Source of the DNA: Solirubrobacteraceae bacterium
GTDB lineage: Bacteria > Actinomycetota > Thermoleophilia > Solirubrobacterales > Solirubrobacteraceae
Direction of reading: 5' to 3'
NCBI GenBank assembly: GCA_051005755.1
Contig: JBPCJA010000194.1
Span: forward strand, 1 to 55,618
DNA: 55,618 nt
Both the position numbers and the translations under genes were made by a program. The notes beneath the pieces are model-generated. The model saw only the letters and a list, made by a program, of their open reading frames with translations. It had not been told where the DNA came from and searched no databases. This document shows positions 1,059-30,259 of this stretch, piece by piece. How positions within the stretch are numbered: the first letter of the stretch is position 1; each line of letters opens with the position of its first letter.

Positions 1059-1901
1059 CTATCGCTCGCGGGGGTCGCCGAGCAGGCGGTGGCGCGCGTA
1101 CTGGCGCGCGAATCCCGTGATGAAGCGGGGGTTGTAGCGCACGTAGCGCGGTCCCAGGCGCTTTGGCTCCTGCACCATCCGAAAGAGCCACTCCAGCCCG
1201 GCGGACTGCATCCACTCGGGCGCCTGCGGCACGAGGCCGGCGTGGAAGTCGAACGCCGCGCCGACGCCGACGAGCACCGCAGCGTCGAGGCGGTCGCGCA
1301 TCGCCGCCATCCACTTCTCCTGCTTGGGAGCGCCGACGCCGACCCAGATGACGTCGGCCTTGGAGCGGTTCATCTCCTCGACGATCACGTCCTCCTCCTC
1401 CGCGGAGAGGTCGCGGAAGGGCGGCGAGTAGCCGCCGACGATCTTCACGCCCGGGAAGCGCCGGCGCAGGTTCAGCGCCAGCTGCACGAGGGCGCCCTGG
1501 TTGCGGCCGCCGTAGAGGTACATCCGGGTGCCGGTCTGCGCGCCGCGCTCGCAGTAGCGGGCCATCAGCTCGGGGCCGTAGACGCGCTCGTCGAGGTCGC
1601 CGCCGAGGGCGTTCATCGCCCACACCAGCGGCTGGCCGTCGGGCACCGTGAGGGACGAGTTCAGGACCGCCTCGCGCAGCTCGGGGTCCTCGCCGCAGAC
1701 CATGATCGTGTGCGTCGCCGCGACGCAGATGTAGCCCTTCTCCTGATGGGAGATCGCGCCGTCCATCCACGCCATCGTCTCCTCGTAGTTGGTCATCGCC
1801 AGCGGCACGCCGAGCACGTCCATCGCGTCGGGCGTGGCGAGGGTGGCCGCCGGCCGCGAGGGCACGGGCAGCCCGGTGGGGAGGGGGCGGGAGATGGTCA
1901 T
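1059..1901 (-). CDS. WecG/TagA/CpsF-family (GT26) glycosyltransferase
   Basis: From ORF 1059..2126, with the start trimmed to ATG 1901 (MTISRPL); ATG 1823 (MDVLGVPLA) is an alternative. Family-typical blocks: GVPLAMTNYEETMAWM, VPDGQPLVWA, VGVGAPKQEKWM, GLEWLFRMVQEPKRL. Confidence 0.85.
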   Translation of the reverse strand: MTISRPLPTGLPVPSRPAATLATPDAMDVLGVPLAMTNYEETMAWMDGAISHQEKGYICVAATHTIMVCGEDPELREAVLNSSLTVPDGQPLVWAMNALGGDLDERVYGPELMARYCERGAQTGTRMYLYGGRNQGALVQLALNLRRRFPGVKIVGGYSPPFRDLSAEEEDVIVEEMNRSKADVIWVGVGAPKQEKWMAAMRDRLDAAVLVGVGAAFDFHAGLVPQAPEWMQSAGLEWLFRMVQEPKRLGPRYVRYNPRFITGFARQYARHRLLGDPRER

Positions 1902-2055
1902 GTGGGGTTCCGACGACGGGGGGTGCCGTCTCAGGGTACGAGTGAGAACGCCCCCGGGCCCGAAAGGTTGCGTTCTTGCACGGCGCGATACGCAGCCCCC
2001 TCCTGCGCCCTTACCCGTCGATCCTGTCACGAAACGCTCCCGATACCCTGCCCGC

Positions 2056-3006
2056 GTGCCCCGCGCACTGATCACCGGCGTCAGCGGACAGGACGGCTGG
2101 TACCTCAGCGAGCTGCTGCATGCCAAGGGCTACGAGGTCGTCGGACTCGTGCGGCCCGGATCCGACGCGCCCGCGCCGGCGGGGGTCGCGACGCTGCCCG
2201 CAGACCTCGCCGACGCCGACGCGCTGCGCGCCGCCGTGCTGCAGACGGCGCCCGACGAGCTCTATCACCTCGCCGCGCCGACGTTCGTCCCCGCGTCGTG
2301 GAAGGACCCCGCGGGCACGCTCGTGCAAGTCGCCGGCGCGACGGCCACGCTGCTGCTCGCCGCGCACGAGGCCGACGCGCAGGTGCGCGTCATGTCGGCC
2401 AGCTCGGGCGAGATCTTCGGTGCCGCCAACGTCTCGCCGCAGGACGAGGACACGCCGATGCGGCCGCGCTCGCCGTACGGCGTGGCGAAGGTCGCCGCCT
2501 TCGGGATGGTCGACAACCTGCGCCGCAAGCGCGGTCTGCACGCCTCCAGCGCGATCGCCTACAACCACGAGTCGCCGCGGCGCCCCGAGCGCTTCCTGCC
2601 GCGCAAGGTCGCGCGCGGCGCGGCGGCGATCAAGCTCGGGCTGCAGGACGAGCTCGTGCTCGGCGACCTCGACGCGGTGCGCGACTGGTGCCACGCGCGC
2701 GACGTCGTGCGCGGCTACCGGCTCATGCTCCAGCAGGACGAGCCCGGCGACTACGTCCTCGCGGGCGGCAGCGGTCGCACCGTGCGCGACCTCGTCGACA
2801 CGGCCTTCAGCTGCGTCGGCCTGGATCCCGCCGACCACGTCCGCGTCGACGAGACGCTCGTCCGCCCGTCGGAGCGAACCCCGCCTGTCGGCGACATCTC
2901 GCGGGCGCGGGAGCGGCTGGGCTGGGAGCCGGAGACGAGCTTTGAGGCGATGATCGAGGAGATGGTGCAGGCCGACCTCGAGGAGCTCGGCGCGGCCGCG
3001 CGGTAA
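2056..3006 (+). CDS. GDP-mannose 4,6-dehydratase-like SDR (divergent paralogue)
   Basis: Frame of ORF 1789..3006. GTG 2056 gives VPRALITGVSGQDGWYLSELLHAKGYEVVGL. Later blocks are YGVAKVAAFG, AYNHESPRRPERFLPRKV and LGDLDAVRDWCHARDVV, as in Gmd. The upstream part of the track ORF is low-complexity and overlaps the divergent promoter region. Confidence 0.8.
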   Translation: MPRALITGVSGQDGWYLSELLHAKGYEVVGLVRPGSDAPAPAGVATLPADLADADALRAAVLQTAPDELYHLAAPTFVPASWKDPAGTLVQVAGATATLLLAAHEADAQVRVMSASSGEIFGAANVSPQDEDTPMRPRSPYGVAKVAAFGMVDNLRRKRGLHASSAIAYNHESPRRPERFLPRKVARGAAAIKLGLQDELVLGDLDAVRDWCHARDVVRGYRLMLQQDEPGDYVLAGGSGRTVRDLVDTAFSCVGLDPADHVRVDETLVRPSERTPPVGDISRARERLGWEPETSFEAMIEEMVQADLEELGAAAR

Positions 3007-3055
3007 GCGCGCGTGCCTCTCGCGAGCTTGCCGAGCTTCTAGACTCGCGCCGATC

Positions 3056-4303
3056 ATGGCCTTGGGAGTCATCGGCATGGGCTACGTGGGCCTGCCGCTC
3101 GCCGTTGCCTTCGCCGCGGAGGGCCACGACGTCGTGGCCTTCGACGTCGATCGGTGCAAGGTCGACGCGCTGCGCCGCGGTGAGTCCTACGTGGAGGACG
3201 TCGCCGACCGGGCGCTCGCCGCCGTCGCGGGGCGGATCGAGGCGACGACGCGGCCCGACGCGCTCGCCCGCTGCGACGCCGTGCTGATCTGCGTGCCGAC
3301 ACCCCTGACGGCCAACCGCGAGCCGGACCTCGGTCCGCTCGTCGACGCCTGCCGCGCGCTCTCGGAGGTCGTGCAGGCGGGCCAGCTCGTCGTGCTCGAG
3401 TCGACCACCTATCCCGGCACCACGCGCGAGCGCGTCGCCCCGATCCTCGCCGAGTCCGGCCTCGTCGCCGGCGTGGACTTCAGCCTCGCCTTCTCGCCCG
3501 AGCGCGTCGACCCCGGCCGCACGGACCACACGATGCGCACGACGCCGAAGGTCGTCGGGGGGCTGACGGAGGCCTGCGGCGACCGCGCCGAGGCGCTGTA
3601 CCGCGACATCTGCGACACGATCGTGCGCGTCTCCACGCCCGAGGCGGCGGAGCTCACGAAGCTGTTGGAGAACATCTTCCGTTCGGTCAACATCGCGCTC
3701 GTCAACGAGCTGGCGATGCTCTGCGACCGCATGCAGATCGACATCTGGGAGGTCGTCGACGCCGCTTCGACGAAGCCCTATGGGTTCATGCGCTTCGAGC
3801 CCGGGCCCGGCATGGGCGGCCACTGCATGCCGGTCGATCCCTTCTACCTGTCGTGGCGCGCGCGCGAGTTCGACATGACGACGGAGTTCATCGAGCTCGC
3901 CGGCAAGATCAACCAGCAGATGCCCTACCACTGCGTGGCGAAGGTCGAGCGCCTGCTCAACGACGCCGGCAAGCCGGTCCGCGGATCGAAGATCGCCATC
4001 CTGGGCGTGGCCTACAAGCCCGGCGTCGGCGACGTGCGCGAGTCACCCGGCCTGAAGATCGTCACGCTGCTGGCCGCGCTCGGCGCCGACGTGCGCTACC
4101 ACGATCCGTTCGTGTCCGAGCTGCCCGCTCACGGCCTGCGCAGCGAGGCGCTCGACGTCGTGCTCGCCGGCGCCGACCTGGCGCTCATCGTCACGGCCCA
4201 CCCGGGCGTCGATCACGACGCGGCGGTCGCCGGCGTGCCGCTGGCGCTCGACCTGCGCGGCGTCACGCGGCACAGCGCGGGCGGCCGCGCAGTGCTCCTG
4301 TGA
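3056..4303 (+). CDS. Nucleotide-sugar 6-dehydrogenase (WbpA/TviB-like UDP-N-acetylhexosamine dehydrogenase family)
   Basis: MALGVIGMGYVGLPLAVAFAAEGHDVVAFD (Rossmann), AELTKLLENIFRSVNIALVNELA, GPGMGGHCMPVDPFYLSW, KIAILGVAYKPGVGDVRESP. Confidence 0.88.
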   Translation: MALGVIGMGYVGLPLAVAFAAEGHDVVAFDVDRCKVDALRRGESYVEDVADRALAAVAGRIEATTRPDALARCDAVLICVPTPLTANREPDLGPLVDACRALSEVVQAGQLVVLESTTYPGTTRERVAPILAESGLVAGVDFSLAFSPERVDPGRTDHTMRTTPKVVGGLTEACGDRAEALYRDICDTIVRVSTPEAAELTKLLENIFRSVNIALVNELAMLCDRMQIDIWEVVDAASTKPYGFMRFEPGPGMGGHCMPVDPFYLSWRAREFDMTTEFIELAGKINQQMPYHCVAKVERLLNDAGKPVRGSKIAILGVAYKPGVGDVRESPGLKIVTLLAALGADVRYHDPFVSELPAHGLRSEALDVVLAGADLALIVTAHPGVDHDAAVAGVPLALDLRGVTRHSAGGRAVLL

Positions 4304-21981: not shown

Positions 21982-22933
21982 GGGCGGCGGGGCGCTCGGG
22001 GGCCGCGGATCGTCTGCCCCAGGCCAGGAGATTACCCACCGGAACCGTGAGCGCCCGGTCGCCGATCCCGGCGCGCTCGAGTACCCGCTGCGCCAGCTCG
22101 CCGACCCTCCGCGGCAGGGGGAGGAGCCGGACCCAGTAGCGCAGCGGATAGCGGTTGCGGATCGCCCGATGCCCGACGTCCACGAGTCCGGCCCTCCGGA
22201 GCAGCCGCGTCACGCTCAGCGGGGAGAACAGCTGTTGATGCTCGACGTCGACGATCGGGGAGCGCAGGCCGAGCAGCCGATTGACCGGCGCCCGCCGGTC
22301 GTGGCAGACGAGTGCCAGGACGCCGCCGGGCTTCAGCAGCCGGGCCGCGTCGCGCACGAGCACGGCCGGGTCCGGCACGTGCTCGATCGTCTGAAAGCAG
22401 GTCACGAGGCTGAGACTGCCCGCCGGGCGGACGTCCGGCGTGAACACCGCGTGCTCGATGAGGTCTGCGATCCGCGCCTCGGCGGCGGCGATCGGCTCGG
22501 TCGACGGCTCGACGCCCCCCACGCCGGTGAAACCGGCGTCGAGCAGCTCGCCGAGGAAGGCGCCCTCCCCGGTGCCGATGTCGAGCGCCCCGTCGCGGTC
22601 GGGCAGGACTGCCAGGAGCGGCGCGAGCGCTTCGCGGTAGGTGCGCGCGGCGAAGCGCCCCTCGATCGCGCTGTCGAACGCCGCCTCCTCGTAGGCGCGG
22701 GCCAGCGCTTCGGGGGCGGGCACGGGGCTCGCATAGACGAGGTCGCACTGCCGGCAGCGCACGAGGCGCAGGCGCATGTGCTCGGGACGCTTGCGCGAGG
22801 CGAAGGCGTAGCGATCCAGCGACGCGGTGTCGAGCCGCTCCTCGGCGAAGACGTCGCTGTCGTCCGTCGAGCCGCACACCGGGCATGCGCGCGCGCTGAG
22901 CTCGCCGAGGAACGCGTGCGTCGGATTAGCCAT
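21965..22933 (-). CDS. Class I SAM-dependent methyltransferase with N-terminal Cys4 zinc-ribbon
   Basis: ATG 22933 inside ORF 21965..23374: MANPTHAFLGELSARACPVCGS...LVRCRQCDLVYASP, ALDIGTGEGAFLGELL, VTCFQTIEHVPDP, GGVLALVCHD. Confidence 0.82.
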   Translation of the reverse strand: MANPTHAFLGELSARACPVCGSTDDSDVFAEERLDTASLDRYAFASRKRPEHMRLRLVRCRQCDLVYASPVPAPEALARAYEEAAFDSAIEGRFAARTYREALAPLLAVLPDRDGALDIGTGEGAFLGELLDAGFTGVGGVEPSTEPIAAAEARIADLIEHAVFTPDVRPAGSLSLVTCFQTIEHVPDPAVLVRDAARLLKPGGVLALVCHDRRAPVNRLLGLRSPIVDVEHQQLFSPLSVTRLLRRAGLVDVGHRAIRNRYPLRYWVRLLPLPRRVGELAQRVLERAGIGDRALTVPVGNLLAWGRRSAAPERPAAHAPAA

Positions 22934-23216
22934 CGTCGCCGGTGTCCTGCGATGGTCGGTAGCCGTACGCGGCCTCGCGCACCGCCAGTACCGGCGCTCG
23001 GCGCGATCGACGTCGAGTCCCGGGTCCGCAAGGCGGCGCTCGACGTGATCGATGCCCAAGGTAGCCCGCGATTCGCTCCGCGAGATCGCGCAGCTGCGGC
23101 TCGGCATGCAGACCCACCCGCAGGGTGCGCAACTTGGGCGCCGTCTGCGCCGAGTCCTCCACGCGTCCGAGCCTACCTCGCCCGCGGTCGTGCCGTCCGG
23201 GTGATGGAGTTGATCC

Positions 23217-24227
23217 ATGGACCTCCTCGTTCTCGGCGGCACGGCGTGGCTTGGACGTGAGGTATCCAGGCAGGCGGTCGACCGCGGGTACGCGGTGACG
23301 TGCCTGGCGCGAGGCGAGAGCGGGACCGTCGCCGCCGGAGCTGTCCTGGTCGCTGCCGACCGGCGCGAGTCCACGGCGTACGAGCGGGCGGTCGACCGTG
23401 ATTGGGACGCGGTGATCGAGGTGTCCTGGCAGCCGGGCCTCGTGCGCGGGGCGCTTGCGGCGCTGGGCGCGAGGGCGAGGCATTGGACCTACGTCTCCTC
23501 GGTCAGCGTCTACGAGTCACACGCGATCCCCGGTGCCGACGAGACGGCTCCCGTGCTGGCGCCCATCGACATCGACGAGGCGGGCCGCGAGCAGTACGGC
23601 GAGGCGAAAGTGGCCTGCGAGCAGCTGTCGGCCGCGGGCGTCGGTGACCGGCTGCTGATCGCGCGGGCCGGGCTGATCGGAGGACCGGGCGACCACACCG
23701 GACGCTCCGGCTCTTGGGTCGCGCGTGCCGCGCGTGACCCGGAGGGAGCGATGCTCGTCCCGGACTCCCCGAACGTGCCGACGCAGGTCGTCGACGTCCG
23801 CGACCTCGCGAGCTGGCTGCTCGACAGCGCGCAAGCAGAGACGACCGGAACGTATGACGCCGTCGGCCCGGTGGTGCCGTTCGGTGCCTGGGTCGAGCAG
23901 GCACGCGTGGTCGGCGGACATACCGGGCCGGTCGTGCGGGCGCCCCCGGCGTGGCTGCTCGAGCACGGCGTGAAGGCGTACATGGGCCCTCAATCGTTGG
24001 CGATGTGGTCGGTCGAGCACGGCTGGGAGGGCTTCTCGGCCCGCGCGGGCGCGGCTGCGCGAGCCGCCGGACTGCACCACCGTTCGCGGACCGAATTGCT
24101 CATCGACGTGCTGGCATGGGAGCGCGAGCAGGGCCTGGACCGGTCCCGGAACGCCGGTCTCAGTCCCACACGCGAGCACGAGCTGCTCGCCGAGCTCGCC
24201 AGCCGACGTGGGCACGATCGGCAATAA
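23217..24227 (+). CDS. NAD(P)-binding SDR-family protein (epimerase/reductase-like)
   Basis: [33 protein letters not shown] (Rossmann), YGEAKVACE (YxxxK), [12 protein letters not shown]. Confidence 0.75.
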
Positions 24228-24605
24228 CTACCACTGTCGTGACGCCGACCTCAGCGCGGCTGCGTGACAGCGGTCACACGTCAGAAGTTCATGGATGCAG
24301 ACACGTTTACTACGTACCATCGGACCTCGCAGAGCACCTCTGGGCGGTGGCCCTCCATGAGCGCCGTCGCGCCGGAACACGCCGGTGCGCTCGGTCGACG
24401 CCGGGACGTGACGGGCGCGAGCACGGCTACCGAACCAGTAATTTTGATCTTTCTTGCATCTTCCTGAGAGGGTCGTGACGCGCGCGACGATGATGACCGG
24501 TTTCTGGCAGCAGACGATAGATCGCTGTAGTGGGGTGGGCACGGATCGTCCGGGGCGGTTCTGGCTGCGGACAGAACGGGTGTCTCGGCGGCTTGCGGAG
24601 AGTCC

Positions 24606-26708
24606 GTGACGGCCTTCGGCGGAAGCACTCCCAAGGCCTTTGTGAGCTGGGCTCACAGTGACGATGCGTGGCGGGACACCATTGCCCGCTTCGTCGTGGC
24701 GCTGCGCGAGTTCGGGATCGATGCCGACGTCGATCTGTTCCATGCCCATGACGGCTCCGTTGACTGGGCGACCTACGGTCCGAACGCGATCGAGCACAAC
24801 GACTTCGTCCTGCTTGCCACCAGCGCCGCCTACAAGCAACGGTGGGACGCTCCTCAGCTGGCTATCGCCACCACGGGCACGGGTGCGGGGGCGGCGCGCG
24901 AGGCAAACGTCCTCAAGGCCCTCTTCAATCGAGACCAGACCGCGTTCTTTCAGAAGGTGATCGTCGTCGTGCTCCCCGGCGCACGAGACGCCGACATTCC
25001 CAACGAGCTGGTGGCTGGCCTACCCAGGTTCGTCATTCCAGAGATCGATGAGCGCCACCTCAAGGACCTGCTTCGGCGCCTCACGGGCCAGCCGGCGTTC
25101 GTCCCCGCCCCGCCGGGTCAGGTACCCATTCTCCCTCCAGAGATCGGGGGCCCGGTCAGAACGACGCAGGCATCCGGAGACCCCGCCGGCAACGAGAAGG
25201 TCGCATCGAACCTCAAGCAGCGCCTCGACCAACTCGACAAGAGCATCGCGGCCACGCCCGCCGGTGCCGAGGACACGCGCAATGACGAAAAGGCGGAGCG
25301 CAGCGCGCTGTCAGCAGCGCTCAAGGCGATCACGAAACGCGCCCATGGCAATTCGCAGCCCTCGCGGAGATGGAGGCTGCCGGTCGTCGTGAGCGCGGTT
25401 GTGCTGGCACTGGTCGCCATCTACTCGCTCTCGGGCGCGGGCGGCGAGGCGGGCAAGGACGCCTTGGACGGGGCGCAGCTTGCGGTCAAGTACGTCAACG
25501 ACGGTGACGATCCCGAGTCGAAGCTGCCGCTCAAGGCCGGTGGGGGATTGCCTCGTCTCGGTGGTGCCAAGCTCGAGCTCGTTCCGACCGATGTGGGGAG
25601 CACTCGGTGTAAGAGCCAACCCGCGTTCAACCAGCTCGTGGATCGCGACCACGTCGTCGCGGTGGTCGGGGCGTACGAGTCGACAGTCACGCTGCAGGCG
25701 CTCATCGCGGCGGACCGGCGCCATGTGCCGCTCGTCAACGACAGCGCGACCGCGCCACCGTTGACGGAACGCAACCCAGCAGGGGTCATCAGGGCGTGCA
25801 CCGTCGATCCGGATCCGAGGCCGTCCCGGTGGTTCTTTCGTGTCGGGCCGAGCGACACTCGGGCCGCGGAGCAGTTCTTCACCCTCATCGAGGAAGCCGA
25901 GCGCAGCGGCAAGATTCCTCGCGTCCGCAAGGTGGCGATCCTGCACGAGAACAACGACTTCTTCGGCAACGCCGGCGCGGCGATCACCAAGGAGCTCGCG
26001 CAGCGCCGCCGGGTGGCGGTCCGCGCGTTTCGCTACCCCACCGTGCTGGGGCCGTCCGCGCCACGGTCAGATTCGTCCTGCACCGTTAAGGAGAGCACGA
26101 TCACGACGCTGCGGCGACGAGTGCAGCAGATGAAGCAGTACCAACCCGACGTCGTGTTCGCGCTGGGCTACAGACCCGATGCGATCGCGGCGGTCCAGAT
26201 GATGCAGAAGCTCGGCTACGTGCCTCCGCCGCTGCTCGCCTACGGTGGGGGCTTCGTCGACCGCACGTTCATCCGCGGCGTGCAGGCCGGCAATCGCGCG
26301 TGCGATCTGCCCCGCGCCGATCCCGCCCGCATCATCGCGCGGGTGGCGTGGTCACCGGACGGCAAGAGCCAGAGCCAAACGGCGCGGCGCATCGCACAGC
26401 TCTTCCAGAGGAGCTACAACCGACCGATGACCCCCACGGCAGCCTCCGGCTTCACGGCGATGCTGACGCTCGCGCGGGCGATCAACGATGCCGGTTCGCC
26501 CGATCCCGCAAAGATCCGGGCCGCGCTGCGCGCGCTCGACTTGCCGGCCGACGCGACGATCATGCCCTGGGGGGGCGTCAGGTTCGACGCTCACGGCCAG
26601 AACGTGCGGGCCCGGTTCGTGCTCCAGCAGATCATCAGGGGGAGCTATCGCGTCGTCTATCCGGGCGACGTCGCCGACGCCAGCGCCATCTGGCCCCCCT
26701 TCAGGTAG
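24606..26708 (+). CDS. Receptor-like single-pass membrane protein: N-terminal SEFIR/TIR-like domain, charged linker, one TM helix, C-terminal type-I periplasmic-binding-protein (LivK/Peripla_BP_6-like) domain
   Basis: GTG 24606. aa 10-80 read KAFVSWAHSDDAWRDTIARFVVALREFGIDADVDLFHAHDGSVDWATYGPNAIEHNDFVLLATSAAYKQRW (SEFIR/TIR-like strand-helix pattern). aa 244-256 RAHGNSQPSRRWR form a positive cluster. aa 257-275 LPVVVSAVVLALVAIYSL form the TM helix (nt about 25374-25430). The C-terminal region has AQLAVKYVNDG, GAKLELVPTDVGS, VVAVVGAYESTVTLQ, WFFRVGPSD and VAILHENNDFFGN, as in branched-chain amino-acid-type binding proteins. Confidence 0.85.
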   Translation: MTAFGGSTPKAFVSWAHSDDAWRDTIARFVVALREFGIDADVDLFHAHDGSVDWATYGPNAIEHNDFVLLATSAAYKQRWDAPQLAIATTGTGAGAAREANVLKALFNRDQTAFFQKVIVVVLPGARDADIPNELVAGLPRFVIPEIDERHLKDLLRRLTGQPAFVPAPPGQVPILPPEIGGPVRTTQASGDPAGNEKVASNLKQRLDQLDKSIAATPAGAEDTRNDEKAERSALSAALKAITKRAHGNSQPSRRWRLPVVVSAVVLALVAIYSLSGAGGEAGKDALDGAQLAVKYVNDGDDPESKLPLKAGGGLPRLGGAKLELVPTDVGSTRCKSQPAFNQLVDRDHVVAVVGAYESTVTLQALIAADRRHVPLVNDSATAPPLTERNPAGVIRACTVDPDPRPSRWFFRVGPSDTRAAEQFFTLIEEAERSGKIPRVRKVAILHENNDFFGNAGAAITKELAQRRRVAVRAFRYPTVLGPSAPRSDSSCTVKESTITTLRRRVQQMKQYQPDVVFALGYRPDAIAAVQMMQKLGYVPPPLLAYGGGFVDRTFIRGVQAGNRACDLPRADPARIIARVAWSPDGKSQSQTARRIAQLFQRSYNRPMTPTAASGFTAMLTLARAINDAGSPDPAKIRAALRALDLPADATIMPWGGVRFDAHGQNVRARFVLQQIIRGSYRVVYPGDVADASAIWPPFR

Positions 26709-26789
26709 CGACGCTCGGTCGTAGGTCGACGCGGACGATCCGCCCCGCGCCATTCCGGGAGACATGCAGGCGCTCGCTTCTGGACTCGA

Positions 26790-28006: not shown

Positions 28007-30259
28007 GTGGCGACCGGCGTCCCGACGCTCAACATCGTCGCCGAGCGGGCCGCGGTCGACGACCGGGCGGCAGTGCACGCTGGCGGCGGGAGCTCGGCGG
28101 CACTGCACCTGCTCGCGCCGGTCGCGGCGTTCGCGCTGCTGGCCGGGGCGCTGCTCGCCGTCCTGGGGCCGTCGGAGGGGATGGAGACGGGTCTGTGGGC
28201 GCTGGCGTTCGCGGTCGCGCTGCCGCTGGGCGTCGCCGTCGCCGTCAGGCAGGTGCGCGCCATGGCGGCCGCACCTCCGGGGACCGGAGCGTGGGCCGTC
28301 GCACTCGGCACGCTGGTAATCGCCGCGGCGATGCTGCTGCGCGAGCGGACCGGGGCCGGGCATGCACAGCACGCCGCGATCGCGCTCGCCGGCCTCGTCG
28401 CCCTCTGGATCCCCTTCGGGCTGGCGCGCGAGTCGCGGCTGCGCACGCGGTTGGCCGCAGCCCCGGTGGGCACCGGCCCGCTGGCCGCCGCCGCGGCGCT
28501 GGCGCTGCTCGCGTCGCCGTTCATCCCGACAGCCGTCGTCACCCCGGCGCGGCTGGCGCCGGCGCTGCTGGTCGCCGGCACGGTGTTCGCCGTCGTCCTG
28601 GCGACCCGGGATTCGGCGTCCCGGCCGTTGGCCCGGCGCCTGTTCGACGTGCTGGCGGTCGGGCTCCTCGCACTCGTCGTCCTGACGACACCCGACGTGA
28701 CGCTGGGCGGCTACAACGTCATCCACCACCACGACTTCTTCCTCGGGCCTACCAACGACGTGCTCAACGGGCGCACGATGCTCGTCGACACGTTTTCGCA
28801 GTACGGCGTCGGCGTCATCTATGCGCTCGCGCTCGTGTTCCAGATCGTGCCCATGGGCTACGGCGGGCTCGCGCTCGTCATCGCCTGCGCCACGGTCGCG
28901 GTCTACGCACTGACGTACGTGACGCTCCGCGCGGCCATCGACTCCCCCGTGCTCGTCGCCTGCGGCATGGCCGTCGCGGTCCTGAGCAACATCTTCCTGC
29001 AGCGCGAGAGCTACCTGTTCTTCCCGAGCACCGGGCCGCTGCGCTTCGGCTTGCCGTACGTGCTCATCGCATCCGCGGTGCTGGCCGCGCGATTCCCGAA
29101 CCGGTCGCGGGCACTGCGAATCGTCGGGTTGGCCACGCTCGCGGCGGCGGCCCCGTGGAGCCTGGAGACGTTCGTCTACACCGGCGCGGTGTACGCGGCG
29201 ATCGTGCTGCTGGAGGCCTACGGTCGCCCGGCGGTCGACCTCCGCGCGGGCTTGGGCATCGTCGTGCGCCGCGGCGTGGAGGGCCTCGGGGTCGTGGTGG
29301 GAGCGATCGCGGCGATGTCGCTCGCGACGCTCGTGCTCAGCGGCAAGGCGCCCAACTGGGGCGGCTATCTCGACTACATCGCCCTGTACTCGACCGAGGG
29401 CCTCGGTCAGATGCCGGTCGACTGGTTCTCGACGGGTCCGGTGGCAGGGCTCGCGATCTTCCTCTCGGCCGCCGGTGTCGTGTGGCTTTCACGCACCGGC
29501 CGCGCTCCGGCGGCGCTGCTCGTCGCCCTCGCGGGCTTCACGGCGTTCGCGGTGGCGTCCTTCACCTATTACCTCGGACGTTCGCACCCGAACAACCTGC
29601 TGCACCTCATGGTTCCGAGCGTGGCGCTCGGAACGCTCTGGGCCAGCGTCCTGCTGCGGCCCGCGGCTGCCGGCGGCTCGCGGCCCACGATGCTCGCCGG
29701 AGCGGCGCTGCTGGCGATCGGGGCGAGCATCGCGGTGGCGGCGCTGCCGCTCGCGAAGGCGAGATGGCCGGAGACCGCGCTGTCGCAGGTCGTCTCCTAC
29801 GTGCGCGGCGACCCGCCCGGGACGGGGTTGCGCTCGTCCCTCGCCCGCGAGTGGGACCAGCCGGTCGTCGACGGCCGCAGCGAGGAGGCGGCCCGGGTGC
29901 TCGCGCGCCTGCAGCCGGGTGACGGGCCGCTGCTGGTCCTCACCGAGCCAGAGCTGACGACCGAGATCCTGCTGCGCGCGGGTCGGCGCAACGTCCTGCC
30001 GATCGCCAATCCGACCGAGGACGACCTCGTCGCGTCCTCGGACGCTCGCGTCCGTGCCGCGCTACGCCGCGTGCGGTCCGGCACGCTCATGCTCACCTCC
30101 GACCCGCAGCCCCGCGGCTCGAAGACGGCGCTTGGTGCGCCGCGCAACTTCAACGGCCTCCAGCAGCTCGCGCTCGACGGGCTGCGCCGCCGGTTCGCAT
30201 GGCGCACGGTCACGGTGACGCCCGGGGGTCTGCGCGTGGTCCGGCTCGTCGAGCGCTAG
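28007..30259 (+). CDS. Large polytopic membrane protein (750 aa) of unrecognised family with C-terminal soluble domain; paralogue of 30256-32640
   Basis: GTG 28007. Many hydrophobic helices throughout aa 30-590. Conserved blocks shared with the paralogue: HHHDFFLGPTNDVLNGRTMLVDTFSQYGVGVIYALA, PLRFGLPYVL, SLETFVYTGAV, YYLGRSHPNN, and in the C-terminal domain LLVLTEPELTTEILLRAGRRNVLPIANPTEDDLV. Confidence 0.85.
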   Translation: MATGVPTLNIVAERAAVDDRAAVHAGGGSSAALHLLAPVAAFALLAGALLAVLGPSEGMETGLWALAFAVALPLGVAVAVRQVRAMAAAPPGTGAWAVALGTLVIAAAMLLRERTGAGHAQHAAIALAGLVALWIPFGLARESRLRTRLAAAPVGTGPLAAAAALALLASPFIPTAVVTPARLAPALLVAGTVFAVVLATRDSASRPLARRLFDVLAVGLLALVVLTTPDVTLGGYNVIHHHDFFLGPTNDVLNGRTMLVDTFSQYGVGVIYALALVFQIVPMGYGGLALVIACATVAVYALTYVTLRAAIDSPVLVACGMAVAVLSNIFLQRESYLFFPSTGPLRFGLPYVLIASAVLAARFPNRSRALRIVGLATLAAAAPWSLETFVYTGAVYAAIVLLEAYGRPAVDLRAGLGIVVRRGVEGLGVVVGAIAAMSLATLVLSGKAPNWGGYLDYIALYSTEGLGQMPVDWFSTGPVAGLAIFLSAAGVVWLSRTGRAPAALLVALAGFTAFAVASFTYYLGRSHPNNLLHLMVPSVALGTLWASVLLRPAAAGGSRPTMLAGAALLAIGASIAVAALPLAKARWPETALSQVVSYVRGDPPGTGLRSSLAREWDQPVVDGRSEEAARVLARLQPGDGPLLVLTEPELTTEILLRAGRRNVLPIANPTEDDLVASSDARVRAALRRVRSGTLMLTSDPQPRGSKTALGAPRNFNGLQQLALDGLRRRFAWRTVTVTPGGLRVVRLVER

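Follow-up and report, generated by a model that had tools for sequence, protein, structure and literature searches.

One extracellular sensor of the periplasmic-binding-protein (PBP) type, apparently diversifying and joined through a single transmembrane (TM) helix to interchangeable cytoplasmic effectors of the death or immune kind, is the pattern that emerges from our analysis of a gene of a Solirubrobacteraceae bacterium. The gene lies in what we call the window, that is, the whole stretch of DNA that was analysed (contig JBPCJA010000194.1 of assembly GCA_051005755.1, positions 1 to 55,618); window coordinates below refer to its forward (+) strand. It is an open reading frame (ORF) of 700 codons with a GTG start (24606..26708, +), which according to the ORF call and to Pfam encodes a SEFIR domain, a linker, the remnant of a TM helix and a PBP domain. 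The interest of the gene lies in the family-level pattern, the window copy itself being a damaged allele. We propose, with a probability of roughly one in two, that the intact proteins are ligand-gated, clustering-activated effectors that consume nicotinamide adenine dinucleotide (NAD), and that the window copy is a decaying allele of such a protein.

Results

The family was delimited by homology searches and by an exhaustive scan of 1.84 billion cluster representatives with the binding domain. Nearly all of the closest representatives (about 20, at least 42% identical to the sensor) have a long N-terminal extension; below them comes a sharp break, after which the matches are standalone binding proteins of about 420 residues. 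Pfam assigns the N-terminal domain to SEFIR in the window protein and five clusters, to TIR_2 in about a dozen, to the Peptidase_C14 caspases in five, to CHAT in P0018 and to the Ser/Thr protein kinases in P0096 and P0101, while P0102 (1123 residues) carries SIR2_2 together with TIR_2. This last protein places two NAD-consuming modules on one receptor, ahead of its TM helix and PBP domain. The TIR relatives retain the Glu of the 'VRxEI' motif, the caspase relatives retain their His/Cys dyad motifs, and the N-terminal domains that were scanned (caspase, TIR, SIR2 plus TIR, CHAT and SEFIR) match PADLOC defence-effector models; these observations suggest that the partner domains are active enzymes. 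In a neighbour-joining tree of the binding domain, drawn without bootstrap, the fused clade stands apart from the standalone proteins, and the sensors linked to SEFIR, caspase and TIR are intermingled. The first-pass annotation of the window, made from the letters alone, had read the gene product as a bacterial analogue of the animal receptor logic. Since one sensor clade is joined via one TM helix to SEFIR, TIR, SIR2 plus TIR, caspase, CHAT and kinase domains, such an outside-in logic gains support for the family with its swapped cytoplasmic effectors; the window copy, whose junction is truncated, is probably not a working receptor.

The SEFIR-TM-PBP proteins probably form a small single-pass receptor family of soil Actinomycetota of the Solirubrobacterales-like kind. 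Full-length hits come from metagenomes only (JGI, ENA and Logan), none being from NCBI or UniRef, and the metagenome scan added one further intact copy; the GTDB species representatives gave SEFIR-domain matches only and no full-length SEFIR-TM-PBP protein. The possibility that the fusion is an assembly artefact was considered and rejected, full-length orthologues being present in several independent assemblies, so that the fusion postulated from the window alone is real. In two caspase-linked relatives, a conserved gene of 129 codons overlaps the start of the caspase-TM-PBP gene by 17 nt (L013 5628-6017; L019 973-1362). Its product has a Gly-rich hydrophobic helix, MLTVGGLVIVLGL, and matches no Pfam or PADLOC model; it looks EACC1-like by its position, its size and this helix only.

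The sensor (residues 271-697, 25416..26696) is a type I PBP domain of the LivK/ANF-receptor-like kind, as judged from PF13458, phmmer and Foldseek. The PF13458 model (Peripla_BP_6) matches residues 271-674 with an E value of 2e-32 and 113.6 bits, for a cut-off of 31.7, and PF01094 matches the domain as well. The nearest solved relative is 8wch_A, SAR11_0655 with L-pyroglutamate, both in phmmer (E 2e-40) and in Foldseek (TM-score 0.93, root-mean-square deviation 2.1 Å); further Foldseek matches are LivK/LivJ and then the flytrap ectodomains of GABA-B, CaSR and mGluR. A C-terminal binding protein of the LivK type had been announced, and the above-threshold PF13458 match together with a two-lobe flytrap fold bears this out. 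Because the nearest solved relative binds L-pyroglutamate, the ligand might be a small carboxylate or an amino-acid-like molecule, although this analogy is only a hint. The alignment also points to four cysteines spread over 25608..26303, C335 (25608-25610), C398 (25797-25799), C492 (26079-26081) and C566 (26301-26303), which are confined to the sensor half and invariant in six SEFIR-linked orthologues. The TIR-linked relatives have invariant equivalents of three of these residues as well, and clade-specific insertions relative to 8wch contain three of the four. We infer that they form disulfides.

With such relatives, the protein might be a membrane-anchored substrate-binding protein working with an ABC importer or in a chemosensory pathway, its SEFIR domain being incidental or regulatory. 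The nearest solved relatives are indeed binding proteins of ABC transporters, and the source databases label the homologues 'branched-chain amino acid transport system substrate-binding protein'. However, genes for an ABC permease or ATPase are absent within about 10 kb at L001, the syntenic locus of a sister strain, as well as from the flanks examined at the other SEFIR-linked loci, and the fused clade is distinct from the standalone transport proteins; for these two reasons a transport role is unlikely. Moreover, a large cytoplasmic enzyme or signalling domain always precedes the anchor in the sensor clade, and the window PBP follows a cytoplasmic region of about 270 residues. Taking both sides together, we give this explanation very little credit.

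At the other end of the protein, the SEFIR domain (residues 10-160, 24633..25085) comprises five beta/alpha units and is recognised by PF08357, PADLOC, AlphaFold2 (AF2) modelling and Foldseek. PF08357 matches residues 10-147 with 32.2 bits and passes its cut-off of 23, whereas TIR_2 (residues 12-90) reaches 23.4 bits and misses its cut-off of 28. The bSEFIR model of PADLOC aligns with residues 8-193 (E 7e-13), through model positions 38-203 of 412 only, which correspond to the SEFIR part; the C-terminal region of the model has no counterpart in the window protein. The AF2 model of residues 1-190, built with 26 homologues, shows five alternating strand/helix units (predicted local distance difference test, pLDDT, 84.6; predicted template-modelling score 0.78). 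Its top Foldseek match in the PDB is the SEFIR domain of Act1 in the IL-17RA/RB/Act1 assembly (9ot1; E 6e-7, TM-score 0.71), and the next are IL-17RA (4nux), the TIR domain of the SPARTA NADase (about 22% identity), the prokaryotic SEFIR 5y8e and IL-17RB (3vbc); in a PDB sequence search, 5y8e aligned over the N-terminal half only. The profile searches (hidden Markov models, HMMs), the structure prediction and Foldseek therefore agree with the SEFIR/TIR-like domain that had been read in the N-terminal region and narrow it to SEFIR: SEFIR and Peripla_BP_6 are significant, TIR_2 is sub-threshold, and the fold is closest to solved SEFIRs.

A conserved element of the domain is found in the alignment of 26 SEFIR homologues (38-77% identity), in which W80, G93, G95, A96, E99 and P132 are invariant and A94, A97 and A100 are at least 90% conserved. 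Most of these residues belong to the motif G93-A-G-A-A-R-E99-A100 (24882..24905), at the N-terminus of helix 94-109. The invariant E99 (24900-24902) is a candidate catalytic residue; in the AF2 model it is situated in helix 94-109, after strand C (67-71), and Act1 carries a His in this column. A SEFIR defence protein of Bacillus has been shown to deplete NAD+ to ADP-ribose and nicotinamide, and the mutation D40A, at its SEFIR-SEFIR interface, abolishes defence. In the literature we found this report of NAD+ depletion by a bacterial SEFIR and no residue-level catalytic data. Beyond the domain, a Pro-rich segment, QPAFVPAPPGQVPILPP (residues 162-178, 25089..25139), is conserved in the SEFIR homologues. 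As part of the motif LLRxLTGQPAFVPAPPGQVPILPP, it aligns with the C-terminal EEFVAPPRGPLPTLQ of the human Act1 SEFIR, the two tails being an extension motif common to bacterial and animal SEFIRs.

Such kinship with Act1 invites an adaptor model, in which the SEFIR domain would be non-enzymatic and, as in the IL-17R/Act1 pathway, would act as a homotypic docking module for soluble SEFIR proteins of its own subfamily, with sigma-70 region 4 helix-turn-helix, TPR, HEAT, kinase or protease domains, that alter transcription or signalling. The top fold matches, Act1 and IL-17RA, come from a signalling helical assembly, the Pro-rich C-terminal motif is shared with Act1, and the effect of D40A in Bacillus shows that a SEFIR-SEFIR interface matters. 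Furthermore, the sensor clade is also joined to an ordinary signalling kinase, and SEFIR domains 45-61% identical to that of the window are fused, in related bacteria, to Sigma70_r4, TPR, HEAT_2, Pkinase, trypsin, ROK and cupin domains. On the other hand, a six-frame HMM scan of the 55-kb window found no second SEFIR gene (nor a second PBP gene), and no partner gene is conserved. The invariant Gly-rich loop and its Glu resemble a catalytic or nucleotide-binding site more than an interface, the sole bacterial SEFIR studied depletes NAD+, and the other partners of the sensor are mostly cell-death enzymes. For these reasons we consider the adaptor model unlikely and favour an NAD-consuming SEFIR domain.

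Members of the SEFIR subfamily are widely distributed among Solirubrobacteraceae, Conexibacteraceae and some Actinomycetes, where, besides the fusions just listed, they include proteins of about 273 residues with the same helical tail. Among relatives such as P0071, P0074, P0030, P0034 and P0036, some SEFIR domains, 55-59% identical to that of the window, are fused to sigma-70 region 4, and others to HEAT, TPR, kinase, trypsin, ROK or cupin domains. The proteins with the sigma-70 helix-turn-helix domain could be transcription factors controlled by SEFIR assembly.

We then turn to the region that connects the two halves. In the full-length AF2 model, two juxtamembrane helices (residues 193-216 and 222-246, 25182..25343) are predicted with a pLDDT of 74-90 and probably form a helical hairpin or a coiled coil; the soluble relatives of about 273 residues have a homologous helical segment after their SEFIR domain. 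Next come a basic cluster, KRAHGNSQPSRRWR (residues 244-257, K244-R257, 25335..25376), placed on the cytoplasmic side by charge count, and the hydrophobic stretch LPVVVSAVVLALVAIYSL (residues 258-275, 25377..25430), with a Kyte-Doolittle mean of 2.37 over 19 residues. Five K/R and no D/E are present in the 17 residues before this stretch, and one K/R and three D/E after it. The charged, probably coiled linker and the positive cluster of the first-pass annotation are thus recovered, with the charge bias as claimed.

The single hydrophobic helix that it placed at LPVVVSAVVLALVAIYSL, by contrast, turned out to be a remnant. In a protein alignment of the window with five full-length homologues (60-82% identity) and in a DNA alignment with the syntenic L001, the window reads ...VVLALV joined straight to AIYSLSG, whereas the syntenic orthologue reads ...VVLALV-AVVAALAVNGGGPLPPAVRVG-AIYSLSG. 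The difference is an in-frame deletion of 63 bp (21 codons), with its junction at 25415..25418 and GGTCG microhomology at its flanks. All of the homologues checked (15 of 15, those with other N-terminal domains included) have a hydrophobic helix of about 20 residues, a G/P/S-rich spacer and then strand beta1 of the PBP, with the motif [VI][KR][VI]G[AVS][IL]Y[SP]L[ST]G (V-K-V-G-A-I-Y-S-L-S-G), and in all 15 N-terminal basic residues precede the lone hydrophobic segment before the PBP. Because the homologues share this layout, LPVVVSAVVLALVAIYSL is the N-terminal, or inner, half of the ancestral TM helix fused to strand beta1; as read from the alignments, what the deletion took is the outer part of the helix (one half), together with the spacer and the initial residues of beta1. 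The full-length AF2 model (pLDDT 84.2) leaves residues 248-262 disordered (pLDDT <50) and places strand beta1 of the PBP at residues 266-273 (VLALVAIY); it contains neither a helix in 247-265 nor any TM helix. The 21 missing residues and this model speak alike against a complete helix. Concerning topology, a cytoplasmic SEFIR domain and an external binding domain are what the charge bias and the 15 homologues predict for the family; for the window allele, whose TM helix and beta1 are truncated, such a layout is doubtful.

Two outcomes can be envisaged for this allele. If the stretch spans the membrane, the sensor is deprived of its core strand; if beta1 forms, about 8-13 hydrophobic residues are left, with no spacer. 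As the allele most likely cannot span the membrane and fold the sensor at the same time, we take it to be a decaying or deregulated copy, and that it is non-functional or deregulated seems to us a good deal more probable than the contrary. One could nevertheless see it as an intact single-pass receptor, with LPVVVSAVVLALVAIYSL as its TM helix and the 21-residue gap as a tolerated length variant. Such a view would be in keeping with a stretch of 18-19 residues, of hydropathy 2.37 and with correct flanking charges, with a frame that is open to the normal stop, and with the recovery of the allele in two assemblies. Yet AIYSLSG (residues 271-277) corresponds in every homologue to the conserved core strand beta1, so that a folded beta1 would leave to the membrane those 8-13 residues and no spacer. 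AF2 shows no helix at LPVVVSAVVLALVAIYSL, the only other copy with the deletion (L018) has gained a frameshift, and none of 20 other homologues aligned or scanned across the junction is without the segment. An intact window allele is accordingly a doubtful proposition, and we retain the decaying copy. The deletion is not an assembly quirk of the window contig, since it is identical in L018, which belongs to an independent Logan assembly and is 99.75% identical to the window over 3.6 kb.

Comparison of the sister strains revealed further damage to the same gene. It is intact, with 723 codons, in L001, L002 and L020, which come from three samples. The window has the 63-bp in-frame deletion, and L018 adds to it a 2-bp deletion at 25197-25198 (+), which splits the gene into ORFs of 225 and 439 residues. 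In L003, on a contig 99.65% identical to the window, the gene is interrupted after codon 103 (site 24914..24915, +) by an element (1146-3153) that encodes an IS66-family transposase (PF03050, E 2.6e-45). In L015 (5606-7766), a syntenic locus of a more distant strain, the gene lies in three frames, with ORFs of 155, 387 and 197 residues and two frameshifts, and its neighbours are intact; this copy is likely a pseudogene. At least three independent kinds of lesion have therefore occurred in one gene among close relatives. Two side observations concern these loci. The metagenome-assembled genome that contains L003 is labelled Pseudomonadota, and the contig is probably mis-binned, given its identity to the window, whose relatives are all Actinomycetota; at L015, the nitronate monooxygenase (NMO) gene found at the other loci is missing.

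The second feature revealed by the sister strains is a divergent tract (25100..26780), which covers the linker, TM and PBP module and differs from L001 by about 12% of nucleotides, the flanks being about 99% identical (blastn). The mismatch profile against L001, per 100 nt, is 0 over 23900-24900, 6-18 over 25100-26700 and close to complete identity after 26800. Between the window and L001, the synonymous divergence (dS) is 0.016 for the SEFIR part, 0.21 for the linker and TM part and 0.19 for the binding domain, for 0.017-0.042 in the flanking genes. The ratio of nonsynonymous to synonymous divergence (dN/dS), taken over six pairs that include pairs of intact alleles, is 0.16-0.21 for the SEFIR part, 0.21-0.41 for the linker and TM part and 0.51-0.65 for the binding domain; it is 0.16 for the epimerase-like neighbouring gene, in the window and L001 pair only. 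The divergence profile, the contrast in dS and dN/dS and the inclusion of intact pairs together indicate that lineages exchange the sensor module, whose protein sequence evolves fast, and that the SEFIR module is conserved. A diversity-generating retroelement was discarded as the source of this divergence, which is even over about 1.65 kb rather than limited to a short variable repeat; no reverse-transcriptase domain was found in the annotated neighbouring genes. We also discarded the deletion as a recombination breakpoint: the divergent tract starts about 300 nt upstream, and the deletion lies inside the tract and not at its edge.

The start of the gene at 24606 is preferred to that of the gene caller (P0001; start 24642, 12 codons downstream, 688 residues), because residues 1-12 are conserved in the orthologues and strand A begins at residue 10. 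A likely Shine-Dalgarno sequence, GGAGAG (24597-24602), ends 3 nt before the GTG. The upstream intergenic region (378 nt, 24228..24605) has a GC content of 63.8%, for 71.3% in the window, which agrees with the comparatively AT-rich leader described earlier; it shows zero mismatches to the sister strain L001 and no Rfam match, and its signals for a sigma-70-type promoter or a terminator do not rise above chance. Several near-identical strains share the gene order GT2, GtrA, two methyltransferases, an epimerase-like gene, the SEFIR-PBP gene, NMO and a 750-residue multi-TM protein. Immediately downstream, the NMO gene runs in the opposite direction. The flanks examined at the window-type locus (L001) and at other SEFIR-linked loci contain no conserved partner gene, in agreement with the first reading of a monocistronic gene without an obvious partner.

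Several features of the surroundings may be mentioned. The 750-residue protein (28007-30259, +) adjoins the gene, matches no Pfam family, contains many long hydrophobic stretches and is kept in the sister strains, with a dN/dS of 0.56 between the window and L001; in view of its neighbours, it possibly has a role in envelope glycan assembly. Between the methyltransferase and the epimerase-like gene, positions 22923-23100 align poorly with L001 (indels, 92% over 79 nt) and form a second small variable spot in surroundings that are about 99% identical. Elsewhere the locus varies among strains (L017 4462-5640; L016 1913-4602): in one case an Amidase_2 (peptidoglycan amidase) gene has been inserted directly upstream of the orthologue, and in another the orthologue adjoins a RepSA replication initiator and an integrase, which resembles an actinomycete integrative element.

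Discussion

Induced proximity, through dimerisation or oligomerisation, activates kinases, TIRs, SIR2s, caspases and CHAT proteases, and type I PBP ectodomains, such as those of ANF receptors and class C G-protein-coupled receptors (GPCRs), signal by closing and re-orienting dimers. The mechanism that we propose for the intact members combines these two principles. The LivK-type flytrap would be outside the cell, followed inwards by a TM helix of about 20 residues, a two-helix juxtamembrane segment and the cytoplasmic SEFIR domain. Binding of a small carboxylate or amino-acid-like ligand would close the flytrap, and this closure would alter the pairing or the clustering of the receptors. The change would be relayed via the TM helix and the helical hairpin (193-216, 222-246), and the SEFIR domains would gather. 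Once clustered, they would consume NAD+ or make an NAD-derived signal, leading to growth arrest, cell death or a signalling output.

Several points weigh against this proposal. The NADase activity, the ligand and the topology of the SEFIR-TM-PBP family are what we infer. The best fold matches of the SEFIR domain, in models, are non-enzymatic animal SEFIRs, and the comparison of the SEFIR and TIR-TM-PBP alignments with hhalign is weak (probability 7.8%), the TIR Glu falling one helix later and not at E99. The locus is not in a defence island, its neighbours being envelope-glycan genes (GT2, GtrA, methyltransferases, epimerase-like, NMO and multi-TM). The sensor dN/dS of 0.5-0.65 may be due to relaxed constraint and not to diversifying selection. 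As for the decay of the window copy, its 18-residue stretch still scores as a possible TM segment, AF2 is not reliable on membrane insertion, and the allele could be functional or constitutively active.

At the level of the family, a wider scheme can be considered, in which a diversifying extracellular sensor is plugged via one TM helix into swappable effectors (SEFIR, TIR, SIR2 plus TIR, caspase with EACC1, CHAT), in the manner of death receptors. We put this forward tentatively. To our knowledge, almost all of the characterised bacterial effectors of immunity or cell death (TIR, SIR2, SEFIR, caspase-like) are under intracellular sensors. If the scheme is true, effectors of the abortive-infection type would respond not to intracellular phage cues but to an external trigger, such as a metabolite released by kin that are lysed or infected, and the cost of such a trigger would account for their repeated inactivation in near-identical strains. 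A sensor that is exchanged and evolves fast, a conserved SEFIR domain and independent breakage are indeed what is expected of a costly conflict gene. The family makes testable the gating of such effectors from outside by a diffusible molecule, as occurs with animal death and cytokine receptors. Moreover, kinase, TIR, SEFIR, caspase and CHAT members form a natural swap series, so that the ligand of one member could be read through another. Caution is required at the window locus, whose copy probably has no function; studies should turn to the intact orthologue P0002.

Comparison with known systems

Parts of this picture are already known, since caspase-TM-PBP, metacaspase-ANF_receptor and kinase-TM-PBP relatives are known or have been noted; among the fusions of this sensor clade, mentions in print are limited to the caspase one. 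Our literature search found no paper describing SEFIR-TM-PBP or TIR-TM-PBP proteins, and a review of signalling by solute-binding proteins makes no mention of TIR, SEFIR or caspase. The metacaspase and ANF_receptor layout was noted by Asplund-Samuelsson et al. (2012), and TM and PBP C-termini are mentioned in passing for the EACC1-caspase 'System 4' (Kaur et al. 2020, eLife, PMC7159879), whose EACC1 is, according to a 2025 preprint, a pore former released by its caspase. System 4 is the closest of these to the window protein. Its PBP domain is 61-67% identical to that of the window, both are actinobacterial, and both follow the order effector, one TM helix and extracellular PBP. The difference lies in the effector: System 4 has a caspase and a conserved EACC1-like gene upstream, whereas the window gene has a SEFIR domain and a 378-nt gap with no conserved small gene upstream. 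The caspase-linked relatives of the sensor have both the 5' EACC1-like gene and the N-terminal caspase of System 4, and the window gene has neither.

Among SEFIR proteins, bSEFIR of Bacillus sp. NIO-1130 (Millman et al. 2022) also has an N-terminal SEFIR domain that scores above TIR, and it is also a single-gene unit; it is known to deplete NAD+. However, it is soluble, with an intracellular C-terminal region, and is found in defence islands, whereas the window protein has a TM segment and an extracytoplasmic PBP domain, in an envelope-glycan context. Because only the SEFIR part of the PADLOC model is matched and no defence island is present, the window protein is outside the bSEFIR defence system as defined. 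The layout of IL-17R is nearer to that of the family, with a ligand-binding domain outside, one TM helix and a cytoplasmic SEFIR domain, and the best structural matches (9ot1, 4nux and 3vbc) belong to its pathway. The polarity is opposite: the N-terminus is inside in the window family and outside in IL-17R. The ectodomain is a PBP in the former and of the fibronectin type in the latter, and animal SEFIRs are adaptors without the GAGAAREA motif.

On the sensor side, SAR11_0655 (8wch) and LivJ/LivK have the closest PBP fold, but they are standalone transport proteins, from which the window clade differs by three Cys-bearing insertions and by its TM tether. ANF receptors, class C GPCRs and the actinobacterial kinase-TM-PBP proteins likewise sense through a type I PBP ectodomain and signal across the membrane. 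In those receptors the output is a cyclase, a 7-TM bundle or a kinase; in the window family, the same kind of ectodomain is connected to a SEFIR domain of the immune or death type.

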